A stretch of DNA of 35,416 nt, taken from an uncultured Lachnospiraceae bacterium (lineage in GTDB: Bacteria > Bacillota > Clostridia > Lachnospirales > Lachnospiraceae). The position numbers and the translations under genes were made by a program. Positions 11,351 to 32,309 of this stretch are shown here, in pieces. The stretch is from contig CAREEU010000007.1 of the NCBI GenBank assembly GCA_948964755.1, forward strand, positions 1 to 35,416, read 5' to 3'. Each line of letters opens with the position of its first letter. Positions within the stretch are counted from its first letter, which is position 1. Under the pieces are notes generated by a model, which was not told the DNA's origin, did not search any database, and worked only from the letters and a program-made list of their open reading frames with translations.

Positions 11351-11398
11351 AGATTGCGAATACGGAAAGATACGAAAGTCAAATCGGATATTCGCAAT
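11351..11398. repeat. Hairpin (11-bp stem GATTGCGAATA/TATTCGCAATC, 26-nt loop) overlapping the 44-bp repeat core
   Basis: The stem pairs 11351-11361 with 11388-11398. It was read directly from the sequence. Confidence 0.6.
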
Positions 11399-11420
11399 CC
11401 GCTTCGCTACTTGCTCATAA
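11377..11420. repeat. 44-bp repeat core, copy A (inverted partner at 15512..15555)
   Basis: GTCAAATCGGATATTCGCAATCCGCTTCGCTACTTGCTCATAAC is the reverse complement of 15512..15555 at 41 of 44 positions. A related ~29-bp tail motif follows in direct orientation (11421-11449 vs 15556-15583). Confidence 0.8.
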
Positions 11421-11575
11421 CCTCATCAAGGAAGTCCCCGCTTCTAAGCCGCCAGACCATTGTGCCGAGGTTCGGCGGTTTCAACTATTTTATGCCCCAC
11501 TGCCTCTGCCCCTGCCAGCAAAAAGCACAGGAGGAACAGGCAAGATACAAAATATTACAAGCAGCAGAAAACAGC

Positions 11576-11815
11576 CAGAGTTGGGAAGCAATATCTTTCT
11601 GTTGTGACTTCGGAGGAAAGTTAGAAAATCTTAGGCTTCTGTCGATCTCTAGGATTTTTTGCCATTCTCGAATGGCAAAAAAAGGGGTGTGTTTAGCCCG
11701 TTGTACGGGCGAATTGCACCCCGGTCCGTCCGGTTGGATACAGGTAAATGCAGAAGCCTTAGATTTTCTTACTTTCCGTAGAGCGGAACAACAGAAAGAT
11801 ATTGCTTCCCAACTC
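11576..11815. repeat. 240-bp nested-palindrome element with a 28-bp perfect outer stem and multiple internal hairpins
   Basis: 11576-11603 is exactly complementary to 11788-11815. The inner stem 11614-11640 pairs with 11750-11776 (27 bp, 2 mismatches). A perfect 13-bp hairpin lies at 11654-11666/11669-11681. GGGGTG...CACCCC encloses GCCCG...CGGGC. The track's 154-aa ORF here is judged non-coding. Confidence 0.75.
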
Positions 11816-11902
11816 TAGCGTCCGTCTTGACACACCCCACTCTTTATTCCAGCCATAAAACATAAAACTTCCTCTCCGCTCCCCTCCCTTTCAACATGTC
11901 CC

Positions 11903-12841
11903 CTATTTCACCAGCAAATACCCAAAATAAACCAAATATCCAACTAACATCACTACTCCTCCAAACCGCTCCAGCCGCATTTTTCGAAATACACACACCC
12001 AAAGCAAAATCCCAGCCAATATAGCAACAACGCCATCCACCAAAAATTCCAAAGCAAACGGCACTGGTACAATCAAAGCCGTAGTCCCGACTACAAATAA
12101 AATATTAAAAATATTGCTCCCCACAATATTTCCAACTGCAATATCTGCCTTTCCCTTCCGTGCCGCAATCACCGAAGTAACCAATTCTGGAAGTGAAGTT
12201 CCAAAAGCCACAATCGTAAGCCCAATTAACCGCTCACTCATTCCAAAAATAGCTGCAAGCCGATTAGCCGCATCCACTGTCACATCACTCCCCACAATAA
12301 TCAGCACCATTCCAATCAAACCGGTAAGAAGCAGCTTCCCCATCCGCTCCTGTTTTTCTTCTTCTGACTCCTGCTCTGCCATTCCCTGCTTTGCAGCCTG
12401 AAACAAATATCCAAGATAGACAAGAAAAAATCCCCAAAGCAAAACCCCTTCCACACGGGTAATCATACCTCCGCTCATTCCGCAGACCAAAAGTACAGCC
12501 GAAACTCCAATCATAAAAGGCAGTTCAATCCGAATCGTAGATTTCTGCACCGCAATTGCTGTAATAACAGAAGTAATTCCAAGAATCACTAATACATTCA
12601 TAATATTGCTTCCTACCACATTTCCAATTGTAATTCCGGCATTTCCCTTCATAGCTGCGGTAATACTAACTGCCGCCTCCGGTGCACTTGTTCCCATCGC
12701 TACAATCGTAAGCCCAATTACTAACTGCGGAATTCCGAATTTCTCCGCAATTCCAGATACCCCGTCTACAAACCAGTCAGCCCCTTTAATTAACATTACA
12801 AATCCCAATACCAACAATCCCATCTGCAATAATACTTCCAT
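11903..12841 (-). CDS. CaCA family sodium/calcium exchanger (YrbG-like)
   Basis: Two alpha-repeat halves each carry GTSAPE/GTSLPE motifs. A strong AGGAGGAAG RBS is upstream. Confidence 0.85.
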   Translation of the reverse strand: MEVLLQMGLLVLGFVMLIKGADWFVDGVSGIAEKFGIPQLVIGLTIVAMGTSAPEAAVSITAAMKGNAGITIGNVVGSNIMNVLVILGITSVITAIAVQKSTIRIELPFMIGVSAVLLVCGMSGGMITRVEGVLLWGFFLVYLGYLFQAAKQGMAEQESEEEKQERMGKLLLTGLIGMVLIIVGSDVTVDAANRLAAIFGMSERLIGLTIVAFGTSLPELVTSVIAARKGKADIAVGNIVGSNIFNILFVVGTTALIVPVPFALEFLVDGVVAILAGILLWVCVFRKMRLERFGGVVMLVGYLVYFGYLLVK

Positions 12842-15511: not shown

Positions 15512-15555
15512 TTCAGTATAGGTTATGAGCAAGTAACAAAACGGATTGCGAATAT
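15512..15555. repeat. 44-bp repeat core, copy B (inverted relative to 11377..11420)
   Basis: See copy A. The three differences are all G/A transitions. Confidence 0.8.
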
Positions 15556-15564
15556 CCGATTTGA

Positions 15565-15604
15565 CCCTATCAAAGAAGTCCCCCTTCTAAGCCAGAAAGC
15601 AGCG
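15565..15604 (-). terminator. Putative terminator hairpin downstream of rnfB
   Basis: GAAGTCCCCC...GGGGGACTTC forms a 10-bp GC-rich stem with a 20-nt loop. TTTGATAGGG follows on the minus strand. It lies 74 nt after the rnfB stop. Confidence 0.4.
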
Positions 15605-15677
15605 GGGGGACTTCCTTTGACTAAAAAACGGCTTTTTATCAAATTCCTTGTCTTTTCTAATGTAAGACATCCTCTTT

Positions 15678-19482: not shown

Positions 19483-20805
19483 CTATTTCTTCTTACGATT
19501 TGCCATTACAGTGGCACGCATCTGTGCAAATGCCTGCGTCAAGTTTCTTTTGGCAGGGCATACAAAGGTACAGCTTCCACATTCACAACATTCCATTCCA
19601 TTTAACTTTTCAAACTGCTCCGCTTCTCCGTGTACTGCCACATCATAAAGCATCTGAGGCACGATATGCCCTGGACAGACAGAAACACAGCGTCCGCAGC
19701 GGATGCAGGCACTTGGTTCCATAGCAGAAACTTCATCCTTTGTCAAAGCAAGCAGTGCAGTAGAATTCTTTGTCACTGGCACATCCAGCCGAAACATTGC
19801 CTTTCCCATCATCGGGCCGCCGTTAATAATTTTTTCCGGCTCACAAGTCAGTCCTCCTGCTGCATCCAAAAGTTCCTGATAGCAGATTCCGGTTGGCACA
19901 ATAAAATTCTGAGGGTCTTTTACTGCATTTCCTGTTACCGTAATAATTCTTCTCATTAAAGGAGTTGATTCACATACTGCCATCTGAATGGCTGCTGCTG
20001 TATCCACATTGCTGACGACACAGCCTGCATCAGCCGGAAGCATAGAAGAATTAATCTTACGCCCGGTTACCGCATAAATTAAAAAACGCTCCCCGCCTTG
20101 AGGATACTTTGTCTGCAGCGGACATACCTTAATTCTAGATTCCTGTGCTACCAATTTTTCGATCTTTGCAATCGCATCAGGCTTATTATTTTCAATCGCA
20201 ATAATACCTTGTGCCCGTTCAAAAAGCTGCAGTTCTACTTTTAATCCTTCTATTACCCGCTCCGGCTGTTCTAAAAGCATCCGGTAATCCGAAGTAAGAT
20301 AAGGTTCACATTCTGCTCCATTGATAATGACAAAATCAATTTTATTGTCATCTTTTGGAGTAAGTTTTACATTGGTAGGAAACCCGGCACCGCCAAGTCC
20401 GACAATCCCGGCTTCTTTTACAATTCCTCGAATCTGTTCTTTTGAAAGTTTTCGATAATCCCGTTTTTCGCCTACTCCTGGTGCCTTTGTATATTGTTCA
20501 TCATTTTCTATTACAATACAAAGTGCCGTATTTCCATTTGCCAAAACCCGATTTTCAATTTTCTTTACCTTACCGGATACCGAAGCGACTACCGGTGCCG
20601 ATATAAATCCCCCTGCTTCAGCAATCTTCTGCCCTGCCTGCACCAAATCCCCTACTGCTACATTAGGAACAGCAGGTGCACCGATATGCTGCGATACCGG
20701 ATAAACTAATTCTTTTCCTGGCTTCAATTCCCGCATGGGTTTATCTTTCGATAACTCTTTTCCCTCTGCCGGATGAATTCCGCCCTTAAATGTTGCTAAT
20801 TCCAT
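19483..20805 (-). CDS. rnfC: Rnf complex subunit C (NADH-binding, 2x[4Fe-4S])
   Basis: The 440-aa protein has the RnfC N-terminus, a GGAGFP NADH/FMN motif, and C-terminal CIRCGRCVSVCP and CCECGSCTFVCP motifs. GAGAGGA RBS is upstream. Confidence 0.9.
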   Translation of the reverse strand: MELATFKGGIHPAEGKELSKDKPMRELKPGKELVYPVSQHIGAPAVPNVAVGDLVQAGQKIAEAGGFISAPVVASVSGKVKKIENRVLANGNTALCIVIENDEQYTKAPGVGEKRDYRKLSKEQIRGIVKEAGIVGLGGAGFPTNVKLTPKDDNKIDFVIINGAECEPYLTSDYRMLLEQPERVIEGLKVELQLFERAQGIIAIENNKPDAIAKIEKLVAQESRIKVCPLQTKYPQGGERFLIYAVTGRKINSSMLPADAGCVVSNVDTAAAIQMAVCESTPLMRRIITVTGNAVKDPQNFIVPTGICYQELLDAAGGLTCEPEKIINGGPMMGKAMFRLDVPVTKNSTALLALTKDEVSAMEPSACIRCGRCVSVCPGHIVPQMLYDVAVHGEAEQFEKLNGMECCECGSCTFVCPAKRNLTQAFAQMRATVMANRKKK

Positions 20806-20845
20806 GAACGTCCTCTCTTTCCATTGATATACTGTACTTTATCTA

Positions 20846-20874
20846 ACTATAATCCAAAATAAAAATTAATGCAA
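20846..20874 (-). promoter_or_regulatory. Candidate sigma-A promoter of the rnf operon (TTGCAT-17-TATAGT)
   Basis: On the minus strand the -35 element TTGCAT is 20869-20874 and the -10 element TATAGT is 20846-20851, with a 17-bp spacer, about 45 nt upstream of the rnfC ATG. Confidence 0.4.
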
Positions 20875-20881
20875 GTCATAA

Positions 20882-20911
20882 GTTGACATCTTTTGATAAA
20901 AGCAAATAAAA
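20882..20911 (+). promoter_or_regulatory. Candidate divergent promoter (TTGACA-18-TAAAAT) reading toward the hairpin element at 21121
   Basis: Consensus -35 TTGACA is at 20882-20887 and TAAAAT is at 20906-20911. No annotated gene lies downstream on the plus strand. Confidence 0.35.
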
Positions 20912-21120
20912 TAACCCATTTTTTTCTTGAAAATATAGAAAAAAACACCAATAAATCCATAAAAATAAAATTTAACAGGATTTATAAGTGTTTAAAACTG
21001 CTAAAATTTTTATAAAATAAGTGCCAAAAAAGGAAAAATCTACAAATCCTGTTTGGTTAAATTTACTGTCTATTTTTTGTATATTTATTCCTATTGTATT
21101 TATAGCTATCCCGTACGCCT

Positions 21121-21252
21121 GTATCGAAGGAGGTTTCTTTGCTGGGGCCGTTTGCACTAAGGCTTCCTCGCAGCGGACACATAAGGCACGAAAATACCGT
21201 GCCTAAGTGCCGGCGGGAAGCAATACCCCTGCAAAGAAACCTCCTTCGATAC
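21121..21252. repeat. 132-bp hairpin-forming palindromic element, copy 1
   Basis: The 22-bp perfect terminal inverted repeat is GTATCGAAGGAGGTTTCTTTGC/GCAAAGAAACCTCCTTCGATAC. The inner stems are GCTTCC/GGAAGC and GGCACG/CGTGCC. The core is ~96% identical to the reverse complement of copy 2. Confidence 0.8.
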
Positions 21253-21342
21253 AAGCTGTCTGTTCCTTCCTATTCATTTTGCACCATCTCTGCTGTATAA
21301 AATTTATCCATATTTTCAACTAAACGATTCGCCTTAATATTC

Positions 21343-21392
21343 TTTTCTAATTTAAAACGTTTTTTTATTTTCTAATTTAAAACGTTTTTTTT
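21343..21392. repeat. Tandem direct repeat (2 x ~26 bp, TTTTCTAATTTAAAACGTTTTTTT)
   Basis: The repeat was read directly. It lies in the 251-bp segment between the two inverted palindromic elements. Confidence 0.7.
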
Positions 21393-21503
21393 AATATCAA
21401 ATCAATAGCATAAGCATATCTCTACTCTATATCTATTCACCGTTTATTAAGAATACAAAATCAAAACAGGATTTATCTGCCAACAGGTCGGTATATACAG
21501 TAG

Positions 21504-21636
21504 GTATGGAAAGGGAATTCTCTGCAGGGGTATTGCTTTCCGCCGGCACTTAGGCACGGTACTTTCGTGCCTTATGTGTCCGCTGCGAGAAAGCCTTAGT
21601 GCAAACGGCCCCAGCAGGGAATTTCCCTTTCCATAC
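21504..21636. repeat. 133-bp hairpin-forming palindromic element, copy 2 (inverted relative to copy 1)
   Basis: The outer stem GTATGGAAAGGGAATTCTCTGCAGGGG/CCCCAGCAGGGAATTTCCCTTTCCATAC has a different sequence from copy 1 but is equally self-complementary. The inner stem carries a compensatory change (GCTTTC/GAAAGC vs GCTTCC/GGAAGC in copy 1). Confidence 0.8.
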
Positions 21637-21684
21637 CTACGTCCGCCCCGAAACTACCTTCCTATGCAACCATCTTGCCCTTCT

Positions 21685-23769
21685 CTACCGAACATCCTTT
21701 ATACTAAAACTAATTCGCCCCATCTTATCCTTCCCAAGGCAAACTACCTTTACAATATCTCCCAAAGTAAGCACATCTTCCACATGTTCAATCCGTTCCT
21801 TAGAAATCTTAGAAATATGCACCATTCCTTCTTTTCCAGGGGCAAACTCTAAAAAGGCTCCGAATTCCTTAATGCTGATTACTTTCCCGGTATAATACTT
21901 TCCTTCTTCAAAATCCGAAGCAATCATCTGGATATATTCTACTGCTTTTTCCATCTTCGCCCGATCCGTTCCGCAGACAGAAACAGCTCCCTCATCTGTA
22001 ATATCAATTTTTACATCGGTTTCTGTAATAATCGCATTGATGGTTTTTCCCTTTGGTCCGACTACATCTCCTATTTTAGCCGGATCAATCATAACCTGTA
22101 TAATTTTCGGTGCATATATCCCTACCTCTTTGCGGGGTTCTGCAATCGCAGGTTTCATACAATGCTCCATAATATATAACCTTGCTTCTCGGCAGCGTGC
22201 AATCGCTCCCTCTACAATCTCTCTTGTCAGACCATGTATTTTAATGTCCATTTGGATTGCGGTTATTCCAGCATCTGTACCAGTTACTTTAAAGTCCATA
22301 TCGCCGAAAAAGTCTTCTAGCCCCTGAATATCTGTTAATAAAAGATATTCTTCATCTGTTTCGCCTGTTACCAATCCGCAGGAAATGCCGGCTACCATTT
22401 TTTTGATTGGCACGCCTGCTGCCATAAGGGACATACAAGAAGCACAGGTGGATGCCATAGAAGTAGAACCATTGGATTCAAATGTCTCCGAAACAGTACG
22501 AATCGCATATGGGAATTCTTCTTCAGAAGGAAGTACTGGTACTAAAGCCCGTTCAGCAAGTGCACCATGTCCGATTTCTCTTCGTCCCGGACCTCTGGAG
22601 ACTTTTGTCTCTCCTACGGAATAGGACGGGAAATTGTAGTGATGCATATAGCGTTTGGAGGTTTCATTGACATCTAACCCGTCTAGTTTCTGTGCTTCAG
22701 AAAGTGGTGCTAAAGTACATACATTGCAGATCTGGGTCTGTCCTCTGGTAAACATAGCAGAACCATGTACTCTTGGAATAATATCTATTTCTGCAGCAAG
22801 CGGACGAATCTGGGTGATTTCTCTGCCGTCTGGACGTTTTTGATCTTTTAAAATCATCTTTCGAACAGTCTTTTTTTCATATTGATAGACTGCTTCATCT
22901 ATCAGAGGAAGCCATTCTTCTTTTTCTGCAAATGTTTCCAACAGGTTGTCTTTTAACAAGCGGATTCGCTCTTCTCTGACCTGTTTTTGTTCTGCAAACA
23001 TGACTTTTTCCATTTCTTCCGGGGGTACAATTTCTTTAATGGCAGTGAATAATTCTTCTGGTATGGCACAACTGGTATATTCATGTTTTGCTTTTCCACA
23101 CTCTGCTACAATGCTGTCAATAAATGCAATCACTTGCTGATTGACTGCATGGGCAGTATAAATGGCCTCTATCATCTGTGCTTCTGGTACTTCATTGGCT
23201 CCTGCCTCTATCATAATGACTTTTTCTCTGGTGGAAGCAACCGTTAATTTTAAATCGGAAATAGTGTTTTGTTCTGCATTTGGATTGAGCACAAATTTTC
23301 CGTCAATTAATCCAACCTGTGTAGTTGCACATGGACCGTCAAACGGAATATCGGAAATCGCTACTGCAATAGCAGAACCTAACATAGCCGTTAATTCCGG
23401 GCTGCACTCTGGATCAACCGACATAACCATATTGTTGATTGTTACATCATTTCTATAATCTTTTGGAAATAATGGACGCATAGGACGGTCAATTACACGG
23501 GAGGTTAGAATTGCATTTTCGGATGCTTTTCCCTCTCTTCGATTAAAACCTCCTGGAATTTTTCCTACTGCATATAATTTTTCTTCATATTCTACACTAA
23601 GCGGGAAAAAATCAATTCCCTCTCTTGGTTTTTCGGATGCAGTTGCTGTAGATAATACTGTGGTATCTCCATAGTGCATAAATGCAGCACCATTCGCCTG
23701 AGCTGCTACACGTCCTATGTCTACCCGCAGCGTCCTTCCAGCTAATTCCATCTCAAAACTTTTATACAT
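21685..23769 (-). CDS. pnp: Polynucleotide phosphorylase (polyribonucleotide nucleotidyltransferase)
   Basis: Two RNase PH domains are followed by KH and S1 domains. Start is at ATG 23769 (MYKSF) with GGAGGAA 5 nt upstream. The track's longer start lacks an RBS. Confidence 0.9.
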   Translation of the reverse strand: MYKSFEMELAGRTLRVDIGRVAAQANGAAFMHYGDTTVLSTATASEKPREGIDFFPLSVEYEEKLYAVGKIPGGFNRREGKASENAILTSRVIDRPMRPLFPKDYRNDVTINNMVMSVDPECSPELTAMLGSAIAVAISDIPFDGPCATTQVGLIDGKFVLNPNAEQNTISDLKLTVASTREKVIMIEAGANEVPEAQMIEAIYTAHAVNQQVIAFIDSIVAECGKAKHEYTSCAIPEELFTAIKEIVPPEEMEKVMFAEQKQVREERIRLLKDNLLETFAEKEEWLPLIDEAVYQYEKKTVRKMILKDQKRPDGREITQIRPLAAEIDIIPRVHGSAMFTRGQTQICNVCTLAPLSEAQKLDGLDVNETSKRYMHHYNFPSYSVGETKVSRGPGRREIGHGALAERALVPVLPSEEEFPYAIRTVSETFESNGSTSMASTCASCMSLMAAGVPIKKMVAGISCGLVTGETDEEYLLLTDIQGLEDFFGDMDFKVTGTDAGITAIQMDIKIHGLTREIVEGAIARCREARLYIMEHCMKPAIAEPRKEVGIYAPKIIQVMIDPAKIGDVVGPKGKTINAIITETDVKIDITDEGAVSVCGTDRAKMEKAVEYIQMIASDFEEGKYYTGKVISIKEFGAFLEFAPGKEGMVHISKISKERIEHVEDVLTLGDIVKVVCLGKDKMGRISFSIKDVR

Positions 23770-24022
23770 CGTTTCCTCCATTCTCCGCTGTCTGCGGAAT
23801 CTTATTTTCTTAATTTTCTAATCTGTCTGTCCCGCCGGAGAGTTCCGAAACTACTGAAAAATACAGAAAATAGGACTATTTCGTTATTTCTTATTAGATG
23901 TTTATTTGTTTATTTCTTTATTTCTTTTTTCTGTCCTTTTCAGTGGTCTCGGCTAACTTTTTTCCTTTGGGAGTCTTTTGTTTTTTCCTAATTTTCTTTT
24001 CCAATTTTCTTTCACAAATATA

Positions 24023-29174: not shown

Positions 29175-30758
29175 TTAACCAAGAAGAGAAAGAACTCCTT
29201 GATTGCTCTGATTTGCTTGAGCTAACATAGATTGACCAGCTTGAGCCAAAATATTATTATTCGCATATCTTACCATTTCAGTAGCCATATCCGTATCACG
29301 AATTTGACTTTCAGCACTTGTCGTATTCTCCACTACATTATCTAAGTTATTAATTGTATGCTCTAAACGGTTTTGAACAGCACCAAGGGCAGCTCTTTGA
29401 TCAGAAACCTTATTCAATGCCGCTTTAATTGTTTCAATTGCATTTAATGCATTTGTATCATCTTCTCCATTTACCTTTAAACCAGTGACACCAATTGCCT
29501 TAGCACTCATAGACTTTATATCAAGAGAAATCTGATTATTGGTTGTAGCATCTGCACCTACATGAAGATTCAAAGTTAAAGCACCTACATCAAATTTATC
29601 TGTATAACTTAACAATCTATCCACGTCAGCCTGTGTTGCCAACTGACGGTCAGTTGCACCCTCTCCTGTCTTTAAATACAGTTCTGCATTAGGATCTAAC
29701 TTACCGTTGTTGTTAATATATTTATCTAAACCATTCGCAGCAATCTCATTACCATCCTTATCAATAAATTGAACTACGCCCTTACTTGTATAGTCAGAAT
29801 AAGCGACAGAATCTACAGCAAGTTTTACAGGAGCAAGCGTAGAATAATACTTCGATATATCTGCAGCAGTCGCACCAATATCTGTCCCTATCTCTTTCCT
29901 ATTTCCATCTGAATCATATACTTCTGTCTTCAGCTTATAATGTGCACCAGTATCAGTTATAGTATTACTAGCAATTGCAACTGCTTGGCTCTTTATATCA
30001 CCTGTTCCAGCACTAGAAGAATAATAAGTTATTGTTGAATCATATGCTTCCCCAGAAGCAACTTGATAATATTCATCTCCCACTTTCTTCAAATACTTAC
30101 CTGTACTATCCGTGAAAACTGCTTCCGAATTATTTAAGAAATTACCAGAATCACTAGATGCAATCGCTACTCCATAGGTTGCACCTGTACTGTCACTATA
30201 ATATACTTTTGTTGAATCAACTGCTGTTTTCAACGTCCCTTTCGATAAAGTCTTAACGGTATTATCTTCTACATAGTAAAGGTCTTGGCTAATCACATCT
30301 ACTTCTTTATATTGGAAATTTGTGTCTTTTGCAGCATTTACATCCCCTTTTAACAAATAAGTTTCATTAAACTTCGTTGTCTCCGATACACGATCGATTT
30401 CTGTTACCAACTGATCGATCTCAGCCTGAATCGCATCTCTATCAGAAGAAGAATTCGTTCCATTTGCTGCCTTTACTGCCAATTCATTCATTCTCTGAAG
30501 CATATCCTGTACTTCTGTCAATGCACCTTCTGCTGTCTGTACGGCACTGATTCCGTCCTGTGCATTAGAAGAAGCCTGTGTCAGTCCTCGGATCTGCTTT
30601 CTCATTTTTTCGGAAATTGCCAAACCTGCTGCATCGTCTGCTGCACGATTGATCTTATAACCAGATGATAATTTTTCTGTGGATTTTGCCTGAGCCTTGG
30701 TTGTGATACCTAGCATACGATTAGAATTCATTGCTGTAAGATTGTGTTGTACTACCAT
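29175..30758 (-). CDS. fliC: Flagellin
   Basis: Conserved N-terminal ([24 protein letters not shown]) and C-terminal ([24 protein letters not shown]) flagellin domains flank a ~250-aa Ser/Thr/Tyr/Asp-rich variable region. AAGGAGG RBS is upstream. Confidence 0.9.
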
Positions 30759-31277: not shown

Positions 31278-31320
31278 CTAAAAACCTCCTTGTTTTCTCC
31301 ATGTCTTCTGTGCCAATATG

Positions 31321-31355
31321 AAAATGCAACATTTGTTAGTAAAATGTTGCATTTT
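31321..31355. promoter_or_regulatory. lox/FRT-like candidate recombination core site 1 (14-bp perfect inverted arms, 7-bp spacer GTTAGTA)
   Basis: The site reads AAAATGCAACATTT-GTTAGTA-AAATGTTGCATTTT. It lies between the divergent csrA and recombinase genes and overlaps a putative -10 (TAAAAT 31340-31345). Confidence 0.6.
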
Positions 31356-31390
31356 TAAGAAAGCAAAATTCAACGAACGGAGGATCTATC

Positions 31391-31981
31391 ATGAGCACAA
31401 CACAGCCTATTAAAAGCAAAGATGCACTGAACCAATTTAAAAATTATTATTTGCTGCAAAAACCTCAGCCAAGAAACTATACCCTGATTATATTGGGACT
31501 AAATACAGCACTGCGAATCTCCGATATTCTCACATTAAAATGGAACGATATCTATGATGACCATACTAAAACCATGAAAAAACATTTAGAAGTAATAGAA
31601 CAAAAGACTGGAAAATCCCGCACGATTGCATTAAACCGCTCTATCTGCACCACCCTAAAAAACTACCTCTCGTATTCCTTCCAGGAAAAACCCTATGAAA
31701 AAGAGCAGTATCTCTTCTTAAGTCAGAAAGGAAAGAATGAGCCAATCAGTCGTTCTCAAGCCTACCGAATTATCTGTACTGCTGCCAAAGCATCTGGACT
31801 GGATCAACATATCAGCTGCCACTCTCTAAGGAAGACATTCGGTTATCATGCGTGGAAACAGGGAACCCCTCCAGCCCTTTTAATGGATCTTTACAATCAC
31901 TCCTCCTACAGCATTACCAAGCGATATTTAAGTATTGAACAAGACGAAAGAGATGAAGTGTATTTAAAAATTACACTCTAA
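31391..31981 (+). CDS. Minimal tyrosine recombinase (phage-integrase catalytic domain only, FimB/FimE-sized)
   Basis: The 196-aa protein has the catalytic residues in order: R (NTALRISD), K (TGKSRTIAL), HxxR (HSLRKTF), H/W (GYHAW) and Y (TKRYL). GGAGGA RBS is upstream. There is no N-terminal core-binding/SAM-like domain. Confidence 0.8.
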   Translation: MSTTQPIKSKDALNQFKNYYLLQKPQPRNYTLIILGLNTALRISDILTLKWNDIYDDHTKTMKKHLEVIEQKTGKSRTIALNRSICTTLKNYLSYSFQEKPYEKEQYLFLSQKGKNEPISRSQAYRIICTAAKASGLDQHISCHSLRKTFGYHAWKQGTPPALLMDLYNHSSYSITKRYLSIEQDERDEVYLKITL

Positions 31982-31996
31982 TCCAATCACAAAAAA

Positions 31997-32031
31997 AAAT
32001 GCCGCTTATCGACAGAGGATAAGCGGCATTT
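31997..32031 (-). terminator. Strong hairpin terminator (14-bp stem, 7-nt loop) with A9 on the plus strand, giving T9 on the minus strand
   Basis: AAATGCCGCTTATC-gacagag-GATAAGCGGCATTT is the stem-loop. On the minus strand it is followed by TTTTTTTTT, so it terminates transcripts arriving from the ABC-transporter side. On the plus strand it is a weaker terminator for the recombinase gene. Confidence 0.65.
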
Positions 32032-32109
32032 CCCTTGAAAAATAAAAAATTTAAAAAAATTCAAAAACGCTATAAAGTATTTTATAAAAACACCGATATA
32101 AAAAATATA

Positions 32110-32144
32110 AAAATACAACATTTTACTAACAAGTGTTGTATTTT
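32110..32144. promoter_or_regulatory. lox/FRT-like candidate recombination core site 2 (spacer TACTAAC, exact reverse complement of the site-1 spacer)
   Basis: AAAATACAACATTT-TACTAAC-AAGTGTTGTATTTT matches the reverse complement of site 1 at 32 of 35 positions. The arm changes within site 2 are self-consistent (G to A in both arms). Confidence 0.6.
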
Positions 32145-32309
32145 TATTTTTTATAAAGTATCTTCCTTTTCTATTCTACTAAACAGCATAAACAAAAGCA
32201 AATATTTTTATACATATCTATCATATCTTATAAAATTCAAGAAAATTTTTCATCTTTTTCCTAAATTTTCTGTATTTTACAACACATTATACAAATCAAA
32301 TATTCTATT

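Follow-up and report, generated by a model that had tools for sequence, protein, structure and literature searches.

Paired long hairpins between pnp and rnfC belong to an undescribed repeat family of gut Lachnospiraceae

Results

Two inverted hairpins between pnp and rnfC

The pnp-rnfC intergenic region of an uncultured Lachnospiraceae bacterium contains two elements, A and B, of a previously undescribed family of many-copy, noncoding hairpin repeats of ~175 nt that occurs in a few gut Lachnospiraceae. We consider it rather probable that A and B are tail-to-tail REPIN/MITE-like hairpin repeats, copies of which are likely kept as terminators or 3'-end hairpins, and that they form no flipping switch. 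The existence of the feature is statistically beyond doubt, the initial annotation was accurate in all but minor points, and the pair represents one ordinary doublet of its family (family 1). Coordinates are those of the window, i.e., the whole 35,416-nt stretch of DNA that was analyzed, and copies are read on their canonical strand, which is plus for A and minus for B.

19483-20805, minus strand: rnfC (Pfam RnfC_N, Complex1_51K)
21113-21117, plus strand: 5' tag of A, GTACG, a variant of the family tag GGACG (family alignment)
21117-21256, plus strand: element A, family-1 hairpin, canonical strand plus (self-complementary repeat, RNA and DNA folds, BLAST)
21143-21232, plus strand: core of A, TGGGGCCGTTTGCACTAAGGCTTCC ... 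GGGAAGCAATACCCCTGC, with the apical stem-loop GGCACG-AAAATAC-CGTGCC
21257-21274, plus strand: 3' tail of A, TGTCTGTTCCTTCCTATT, which fits the family consensus (position-specific composition)
21275-21481, no strand: doublet spacer, AT-rich, without an ORF (composition, BLAST, TRF)
21482-21499, minus strand: 3' tail of B, TGTATATACCGACCTGTT on the minus strand
21500-21640, minus strand: element B, family-1 hairpin, canonical strand minus (self-complementary repeat, folds, gene context)
21524-21613, minus strand: core of B (same-locus alignment, nine strain contigs)
21640-21644, minus strand: 5' tag of B, GGACG on the minus strand
21685-23781, minus strand: pnp, encoding PNPase of 698 aa (Pfam RNase_PH, PNPase, KH_1, and S1 on an identical protein)

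The initial annotation had placed two inverted hairpin elements between pnp and rnf, and both were found there, each folding into one long hairpin of ~140 nt. RNA folding energies for A and B ranged from -78 to -91 kcal/mol, versus -42 to -45 kcal/mol for shuffled sequences (z = -9.7 to -11.7), and none of 200 shuffles matched the native values. With DNA parameters, the hairpins were no weaker than as RNA (z = -10 to -11.3); for element A, the RNA fold reached -83.7 kcal/mol (z = -11.1) and the DNA fold had a z score of -10.9. The arms of A (21117-21147 and 21226-21256, 31 nt) were 94% self-complementary and those of B (21500-21517 and 21623-21640, 18 nt) were 100% self-complementary, and only the final G of the 5' tag of A was paired. 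A and B together constitute a 140-nt inverted repeat (21135-21274 and 21482-21621) that is 86% complementary.

Near-identity of the cores, put at ~96% in the initial annotation, was confirmed by alignment of the 90-nt cores at 21143-21232 and 21524-21613, which lie in inverted orientation and differ at 3 positions (97% identity). Among these differences, the paired inner change GCTTCC/GGAAGC versus GCTTTC/GAAAGC also proved real (alignment columns 62/113). The outer stems had been said to differ completely while remaining perfectly paired, and neither part of that description held: 16 of 22 positions agreed between A and B, with all 6 differences compensated, and the stem of A contained one C.A mismatch while that of B contained a 1-nt bulge and one mismatch. 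The bracketed segment was AT-rich with a two-unit tandem repeat, as described, at 27% G+C, the repeat (21343-21391) having a period of 25 nt, 2.0 copies, and a 100% match by TRF. One strain had a single unit of this tandem repeat in its spacer. Since pnp and rnfC are both on the minus strand, B is sense and A is antisense to both genes; B, the gene-proximal member, lies 44 nt past the pnp stop codon, and A is the distal member.

The locus in other strains and a sister species

Nine other assemblies of the window's species showed the same arrangement as far as each contig reached, most of these contigs terminating within an element. The spacer had the same orientation in all seven same-locus assemblies that span it. 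In seven other strain contigs of the species, the apex of B read GGTGCT/AGCACC, not GGCACG/CGTGCC, which amounts to three compensated pairs, and single-step C/T polymorphisms were present in the lower stems of both A and B.

In a sister species whose PNPase is 96% identical, pnp-rnfC synteny is kept and neither hairpin is present. At this locus (L054), 190 unrelated bases take the place of window positions 21021-21684, and homology returns in the 215 nt upstream of rnfC (~20806-21020), outside the doublet and the segment it brackets. No clean empty site was found at pnp-rnfC, and because the sister species carries the unrelated 190-nt segment, insertion boundaries at this site are not definable.

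Copies and distribution of family 1

The initial annotation would have been refuted by an element found nowhere else; this one is present elsewhere, and BLAST with element A returned 58 copies, a count that covers genome fragments rather than complete genomes; 14 of these were cut off at contig or tile ends. The 56 copies in other genomes matched A at 85-99% identity. When one genome per GTDB species was scanned for exact matches to the core 20-mer GGGGCCGTTTGCACTAAGGC, 44 stretches were recovered, 42 in MAG MGBC128194 (mouse-gut Lachnospiraceae) and 2 in a second Lachnospiraceae MAG. All copies were in intergenic DNA, assemblies broke inside the elements, and no ORF was compatible with the variable paired stems. 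The family is therefore like MITEs in being small, noncoding, multicopy, and polymorphic for presence (absent from pnp-rnfC of the sister species).

A metagenome collection contained only one match to the family, and none was found in phage and plasmid records (blastn) or viral contigs (19-mer scan). Comparison with Rfam, a check that the initial annotation had proposed, gave no match across the whole window at gathering thresholds and nothing relevant over 20800-21800 at E values up to 10, where the only match was a chance one to STnc410 (E = 1.8) inside the spacer.

Anatomy and covariation

Forty-one complete copies, read on the canonical strand, could be aligned nearly without gaps and share one plan: an unpaired tag cGGACGc, a lower stem, the core, an apical stem, and a T-rich tail CTGTnTnTT. 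Mean pairwise identity was 78% in the tag columns versus 33-35% in flanking DNA. The lower stem (~18 bp) differed in sequence in nearly every copy with pairing kept (mean pairwise identity, 0.46), and the stem base TTCTCTGC/GCAGAGAA was conserved. The two core halves contain fixed bulges, are asymmetric, and had a mean pairwise identity of 98-99% over the 41 copies; in the middle helix, 16 of 17 pairs were invariant. The apical 5-bp stem occurred in six versions around a fairly constant loop, AAAAGAC. Following the hairpin, the tail had the consensus TGTnTnTTyCArCCrrAA, with T at tail positions 1, 3, 5, and 7 in 35-39 of the 41 copies. Its first 9 nt held a mean of 5.2 T, versus 2.3 on the other side of the hairpin, and the tail was T-rich on the canonical strand only. 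The tail of B, UGUAUAUAC, is a poor U-tract.

The hairpin arms coevolve with almost pure Watson-Crick pairing. Standard pairs filled 98.0% of 2211 cells, versus 82.4% when partners were shuffled and 36-48% when partners were slid by 1-3 columns. Changes on both sides affected 29 pairs and 385 cells, versus 120 cells in shuffles. G.U pairs were nearly absent (5 of 2211 cells), and mismatches on the canonical strand were more often A.C (28) than G.U (8). So few G.U pairs speak for control of pairing on the DNA itself or on both strands. The claim of the initial annotation that covariation implies selection for the hairpin was upheld as far as maintenance of pairing goes, which is much plainer in the family (98% versus 82% shuffled in 41 copies) than between A and B alone. 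Covariation by itself is insufficient proof of a structured RNA, as the DNA hairpins of REPINs likewise compensate (PMC3116915).

Gene context and doublets

The usual site of a copy is sense and just past a stop codon, with an inverted second copy being optional. There were 23 sense copies after a gene, 20 of them at most 130 nt from the stop codon. Single copies were mostly sense, 17-180 nt past a stop codon (13 sense versus 6 antisense), and five of the six antisense singles were near the high-coordinate end of the genome fragment that carries them, the downstream side expected for a tail-to-tail partner. All 13 doublets were tail-to-tail, with tags outward and tails inward; between codirectional genes, the gene-proximal copy was sense and the distal copy antisense, as with B and A.

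Doublet spacers ranged from 93 to 1068 nt and were unrelated, and the window spacer had no BLAST similarity beyond ~20 nt to those of 10 other doublets. Some spacers held ordinary genes, namely, a metallophosphoesterase-like ORF, scpA/scpB, and a Cys/Gly-rich ORF. On these grounds, a doublet that moves as a transposon with conserved cargo was ruled out. With respect to termination, position and strand fit in 23 copies, and the tail combines 5.2 T per 9 nt with a fixed TGTnTnTT motif, weak for B; a simple terminator scan, which cannot evaluate loops of >8 nt, made no call on the element.

A second family with the same termini

Folding, alignment, and a tag-plus-palindrome scan identified a second hairpin in the window:

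11565-11825, minus strand: family-2 hairpin, ~260 nt

This copy lies 78 nt past the stop codon of the ORF at 11903-12841 (minus strand) and folds at -135 kcal/mol (z = -13.8). Its ends are of the family-1 type, starting with GGACGC plus a variable stem and closing with the stem plus GCTGTTTT. The core differs from that of family 1 and includes a terminator-like hairpin, GGGGTG..CACCCC followed by T7, in the same orientation. Copies in MAG loci were ~80% identical, and three aligned copies showed compensated lower-stem changes. The family thus exists in many copies with a core that hardly varies, and a second family has the same termini. The same short termini around unrelated cores would be expected if a mobilizing or processing enzyme sees the termini.

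The tag-plus-palindrome scan found only full family-1 and family-2 elements, leading us to discard insertion of a core into older, "empty" GGACG hairpins.

Copy evolution and mobility

The lower stems of family 1 form a graded network (identity of a copy to its nearest relative: median, 72%; maximum, 94%), a pattern more in keeping with divergence during descent than with de novo generation. Furthermore, independent copies never share a lower stem, which, with the median of 72%, gives no sign of a recent transposition burst. An orthologous copy present in two MAG species showed 4-5 compensated lower-stem changes, and only a few bases differed in its core, at the 3' edge. Of the partner copy, one of the two species retains a 16-nt remnant (L028). 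What could be taken there for an empty site, with an inverted target duplication making the variable stem, is more readily explained by a deletion between GTTTTT microhomologies. Doublet partners had the same apical version in 7 of 11 cases, which is above chance (P = 0.006) and suggests gene conversion between neighboring copies.

No direct repeat indicative of a target-site duplication flanked singles or doublets (flanks, with inspection by eye for the window and L017). Conserved terminal inverted repeats of the MITE type were not found, the terminal ~18 bp of the arms being the least conserved part (46% pairwise identity), and no IS with the family's ends was seen. A tblastn search of ~400 kb for a Y1/RAYT-like ORF gave nothing below E = 4, a weak test in that the query was an approximate IS200 TnpA. 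All-against-all BLAST of 289 ORFs revealed no gene family that consistently adjoins copies, only common paralogues, two TnpB-like genes, and two small recombinases. The two TnpB-like genes (PF07282) are diverged and lie 174 and 466 nt from copies; a tnpB unit carrying the hairpin was ruled out, as homology of the tnpB units stops 385 nt before the hairpin. As for the two small tyrosine recombinases (PF00589, ~195 aa), a family-1 doublet (L033) and a family-2 copy are 148-194 nt distant from them. Their homologue in the window (31391-31981) is the one nearest to A and B, at a distance of 10 kb; it is located beside csrA-flagellin, and its own 43-nt inverted repeats are unrelated. This recombinase family has >6000 homologues across Lachnospiraceae, far wider than the distribution of the hairpins.

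Discussion

The initial annotation had offered three options for the hairpins (a structured RNA, a hairpin-recognized REP/MITE-like element, or a cruciform DNA), and the second fits best, given at least 58 intergenic copies, conserved unpaired termini, and assembly breaks. REPs are mostly downstream of genes and occur as head-to-head or tail-to-tail dimers (PMC3733652), and REPINs are inverted doublets with compensatory changes and no target duplication, from which singlets arise by decay (PMC3116915). Family 1 resembles the REP/REPIN-RAYT systems in consisting of high-copy extragenic palindromes downstream of genes, in forming inverted doublets, and in bearing a short unpaired tag by the stem. 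The systems are also alike in that compensatory changes preserve the hairpin, target-site duplications are absent, and singlets can be doublet remnants; one family-1 singlet with a remnant beside it has a doublet as its counterpart in a related species.

There are also differences. REP units are 20-40 nt long, with 8- to 9-bp stems, conserved ends, and a GTAG or CGTC tag at one end, whereas here a ~140-nt hairpin has an invariant centre and a hypervariable base. The doublet spacers here span 93-1068 nt and are unrelated, each unit folds alone, and singles are sense biased. The REP/REPIN-RAYT systems belong to Pseudomonas and enterobacteria, whereas the host of family 1 is a Firmicute in which a RAYT gene was not found by the weak tblastn search. 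Membership in the CGTC-tagged REPs was rejected on size and on tag polarity, the family having GGACG at the 5' end on the canonical strand and CGTCC at the 3' end on the other; polarity is judged here on our own understanding that the definition places the tag at the 5' end of a unit, although the wording of the paper is only "terminal". Neither REPs, by size and tag polarity, nor MITEs, by terminal repeats and duplications, can accommodate family 1, which makes it a related type that is a member of neither. Family 1 varies at its base and is invariant in its centre, the opposite of the REP/MITE arrangement.

ERIC/IRU, Correia (NEMIS), RUP, BOX, and SMAG elements are likewise imperfect palindromes of 100-200 nt in transcribed intergenic DNA, noncoding and lineage specific. 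They are present in tens to hundreds of copies, are often cotranscribed, and act as terminators, RNase targets, or mRNA stabilizers. In these families the terminal inverted repeats are conserved, and insertion usually leaves a target-site duplication (TA for Correia and RUP); no such feature was found here. We know of no description of a hypervariable paired basal stem around an invariant core in the ERIC, Correia, RUP, BOX, or SMAG families. Intrinsic terminators are similar in presenting a strong hairpin and then a T-rich tract, sense and tens of nucleotides past a stop codon, but the hairpin here is ~10 times larger, has a conserved, bulged core, and ends in a fixed TGTnTnTT tail instead of a simple run of U. 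Elements of this general kind are familiar, but the architecture of family 1 and the purity of its covariation are unusual.

Our preferred reading can be extended to a mechanism. The family would have originated as a REPIN/MITE-like element and dispersed as DNA, with its unpaired termini and invariant core presumably recognized by some enzyme on the single-stranded hairpin. Pairing of the arms may have been kept through selection on the hairpin, arm-to-arm correction, or both. Copies would then have been retained mainly where the canonical strand is transcribed at a gene end, with the long hairpin and T-rich tail serving as a putative terminator or 3'-end protecting hairpin; the sense bias of singles, the T-rich tail on one strand, and the terminator of family 2 all point to retention as 3'-end hairpins. 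At the pnp locus, B would close the pnp transcript, and the B-spacer-A unit would separate pnp from the rnf promoter region. Several observations sit poorly with this account. No transposase is linked to the family, there is neither a target-site duplication nor a clean empty site, and only 5-6 nt are conserved per end together with the invariant centre, whereas MITEs and REPINs conserve their termini. The terminator or RNA part is further weakened by the near absence of G.U, by the excess of A.C over G.U mismatches (28 versus 8), by the poor U-tract of B, and by half of the doublet members being antisense to both neighbors.

Alternatively, the hairpins may be host-selected structured RNAs, in which the core, and perhaps also a recurring single-stranded CGGAC motif, binds one RNA-binding protein or nuclease, so that at least 50 transcripts share a 3'-untranslated-region element; the lower and apical stems would be generic helices, and mobility would be irrelevant or long past. 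The sense orientation of copies 17-130 nt from stop codons, the strand-specific, unpaired tag and tail, and the rarity of antisense copies standing alone speak for such an element. So do the lack of variation in the core over 41 copies, even at 16 helix pairs where covariation would have been possible, and the persistence of orthologous copies in two species, whose stems drifted at about the rate of the flanks (roughly 19%). We nonetheless regard this explanation as unlikely. Having G.U in only 5 of 2211 cells, with wobble-type mismatches that favor the opposite strand 28 to 8, is unusual for a fast-evolving RNA helix; moreover, there was no Rfam match even at E values up to 10, the distal member of a doublet is antisense to both genes, the sister species lacks the elements at the same locus, and no candidate protein was found. 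The Watson-Crick-only covariation, together with the conserved asymmetric bulges and strand-asymmetric mismatches, would suit folded single-stranded sites for a tyrosine recombinase or an IS200/IS605-type enzyme that recognizes structure, extrahelical bases, and tags. Integron attC sites are of this sort, being imperfect palindromes of 57-141 nt in which structure is conserved more than sequence and key bases are unpaired, and which a tyrosine recombinase uses as folded single strands. The absence of target-site duplications and the presence of recombinase or TnpB-like genes within 150-470 nt of copies at 4 loci are in keeping with such sites, but adjacency would be expected fairly often, the loci having been chosen for the hairpin, and the geometry of hairpin and recombinase varies by locus. 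In addition, the >6000 Lachnospiraceae homologues of the recombinase are far more widespread than the hairpins. Family 1 departs from attC in lacking RYYYAAC/GTTRRRY (R/L) boxes, direct-orientation cassette arrays, and intI, and in having the centre as its conserved part; its termini are GGACGC ... GCTGT, and its copies are dispersed or in inverted pairs. A role as folded recombination sites of this sort is quite improbable.

The inverted geometry had also led the initial annotation to propose that recombination between the two copies would invert the bracketed segment. A phase-variable version of this idea, in which a site-specific recombinase flips 21257-21499 via A and B and so switches transcription into rnf, could draw on the inverted repeats around an AT-rich stretch upstream of an operon, on the inverted arrangement of every family doublet, and on the small Fim-like tyrosine recombinases of these genomes (148 nt from the L033 doublet and at 31391-31981 in the window). 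We hold it to be highly improbable. All seven spanning assemblies had one orientation, itself a weak test since assemblies report the majority orientation only. A crossover inside the hairpins would join left and right arms of different elements, which for A and B would pair at 16 of 22 positions, so the matched arms within each element, seen in 11 doublets with both copies complete and in complete strain elements, oppose inversion. Other doublets enclose ordinary genes (phosphoesterase, scpA/scpB), doublet partners are often unlike in their apical stems, the conserved region upstream of rnfC is outside the bracketed part, and no dedicated recombinase is alongside, the nearest being 10 kb off with unrelated 43-nt inverted repeats. 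A search of metagenome contigs for recombinant junctions gave no match but had no power, the species being absent and the collection holding one family copy.

Returning to REPIN/MITE-like repeats, a bolder variant would treat the hairpins as genome-wide addresses, each combining an invariant protein-binding core with a locus-specific Watson-Crick stem that a dedicated enzyme reads in single-stranded form. The reading may occur on one strand, as folded single-stranded DNA or RNA, with a small tyrosine recombinase, a TnpB/HUH-type protein, or an RNA-binding protein as candidates. We consider this improbable; if true, it would define a new structure-specific recognition system in Firmicutes, in which the mechanism itself, rather than drift plus selection, would maintain or even generate the hypervariable stems.

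If our account of the family is correct, the Lachnospiraceae gain a large family of structured repeats; REP/MITE-type elements have hardly been described in this clade, which is dominant in the gut but has been little studied. The positions of the elements probably indicate where transcription units end. In searches for structured RNAs or invertons they may be taken for either, as they display textbook covariation and inverted-repeat geometry while belonging to neither class. With its invariant bulged core, its stems changed on both sides in 385 cells at almost no G.U, and its termini common to two families, it also provides a natural data set on the means by which the arms of long DNA or RNA hairpins stay matched. 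At a practical level, the elements disrupt short-read assemblies, and many contigs stop inside them.

Variation in the paired hairpins among strains and species

Hairpin B, the minus-strand partner in the tail-to-tail doublet of family-1 repeats between pnp and rnfC, exists in two versions within the species. A comparison of the equivalents of window positions 21560-21580 at the same locus of other strains (stretches L001-L009) showed an apical stem of either GGCACG/CGTGCC or GGTGCT/AGCACC, fully compensated, and strains that differ in this apex encode an identical PNPase protein. Because the version in the window is also that of its plus-strand partner, hairpin A, the comparison suggests recent gene conversion between A and B.

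In the alignment of family-1 copies (A3), lower-stem mismatches (columns 13-31 paired with 134-151) were asymmetric, with 28 A.C/C.A vs 8 G.U/U.G on the canonical strand (plus for A, minus for B), which would place wobble pairs on the antisense strand relative to the gene upstream. The two single-step polymorphisms within the species were both of this strand-asymmetric type. In a sister species (L054, PNPase 96% identical), the pnp-rnfC interval (L054:5122-5545) has neither A nor B and holds an unrelated 190-nt replacement containing TTCTGAACGCAGATTGTTTTTT. Judged by its sequence similarity to the tag and stem start of an element, TTCTGAACGCAGATTGTTTTTT may be a relic of an element.

A second hairpin family and neighboring genes

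The window also carries a larger hairpin repeat.

11565-11825, minus strand: family-2 hairpin repeat, ~260 nt

Its ends (GGACGC ... GCTGTTTT) are the same termini as those of family 1, and its lower stem is likewise variable with compensated changes. The core differs from that of family 1 and contains a terminator-like GGGGTG..CACCCC hairpin followed by T7. Copies of ~80% identity occur in L011, L021, L025, and L040. The CGGAC motif recurs in the tag, the core, and the family-2 apex.

Elsewhere in the window, a 46-nt inverted repeat (arms 11378-11423 and 15520-15565, 93% complementary) encloses 4.1 kb with three minus-strand ORFs; both arms adjoin a common motif, AAGAAGTCCCC..CTTCTAAGCC, whose copy at 15566-15620 folds as its own hairpin.

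In two stretches outside the window, family-1 hairpins lie 174-466 nt from TnpB-like genes with a Cas12f1-like TNB domain.

L038:5725-6912: TnpB-like gene
L043:3965-5287: TnpB-like gene

These genes have diverged (68% nucleotide identity), the cores of the adjoining hairpins are identical to one another, and the conserved tnpB unit stops short of the hairpin.

Fragments of element ends are tandemly amplified beside some copies, as ~7 repeats of ~61 nt, each with the tail motif TTTCAGCCGAAACGTTGTTTT, in a spacer (L033:5337-5781) and, ahead of the tag, as five GGGAATTCTAGCGGAC repeats (L041:4270-4360) or three GGAC(A) motifs (L026:5140-5175).

A recombinase and flagellin region

31391-31981: small tyrosine recombinase gene (PF00589, 196 aa)

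This gene is flanked by 43-nt inverted repeats (31315-31357 and 32108-32150) and is oriented divergently to two neighbors, csrA and a flagellin gene on the minus strand (29175-30758). Six other assemblies share this gene order. The region (31315-32150) looks like a flagellin phase-variation switch. The recombinase family has >6000 homologues, many on contigs of 1-3 kb.
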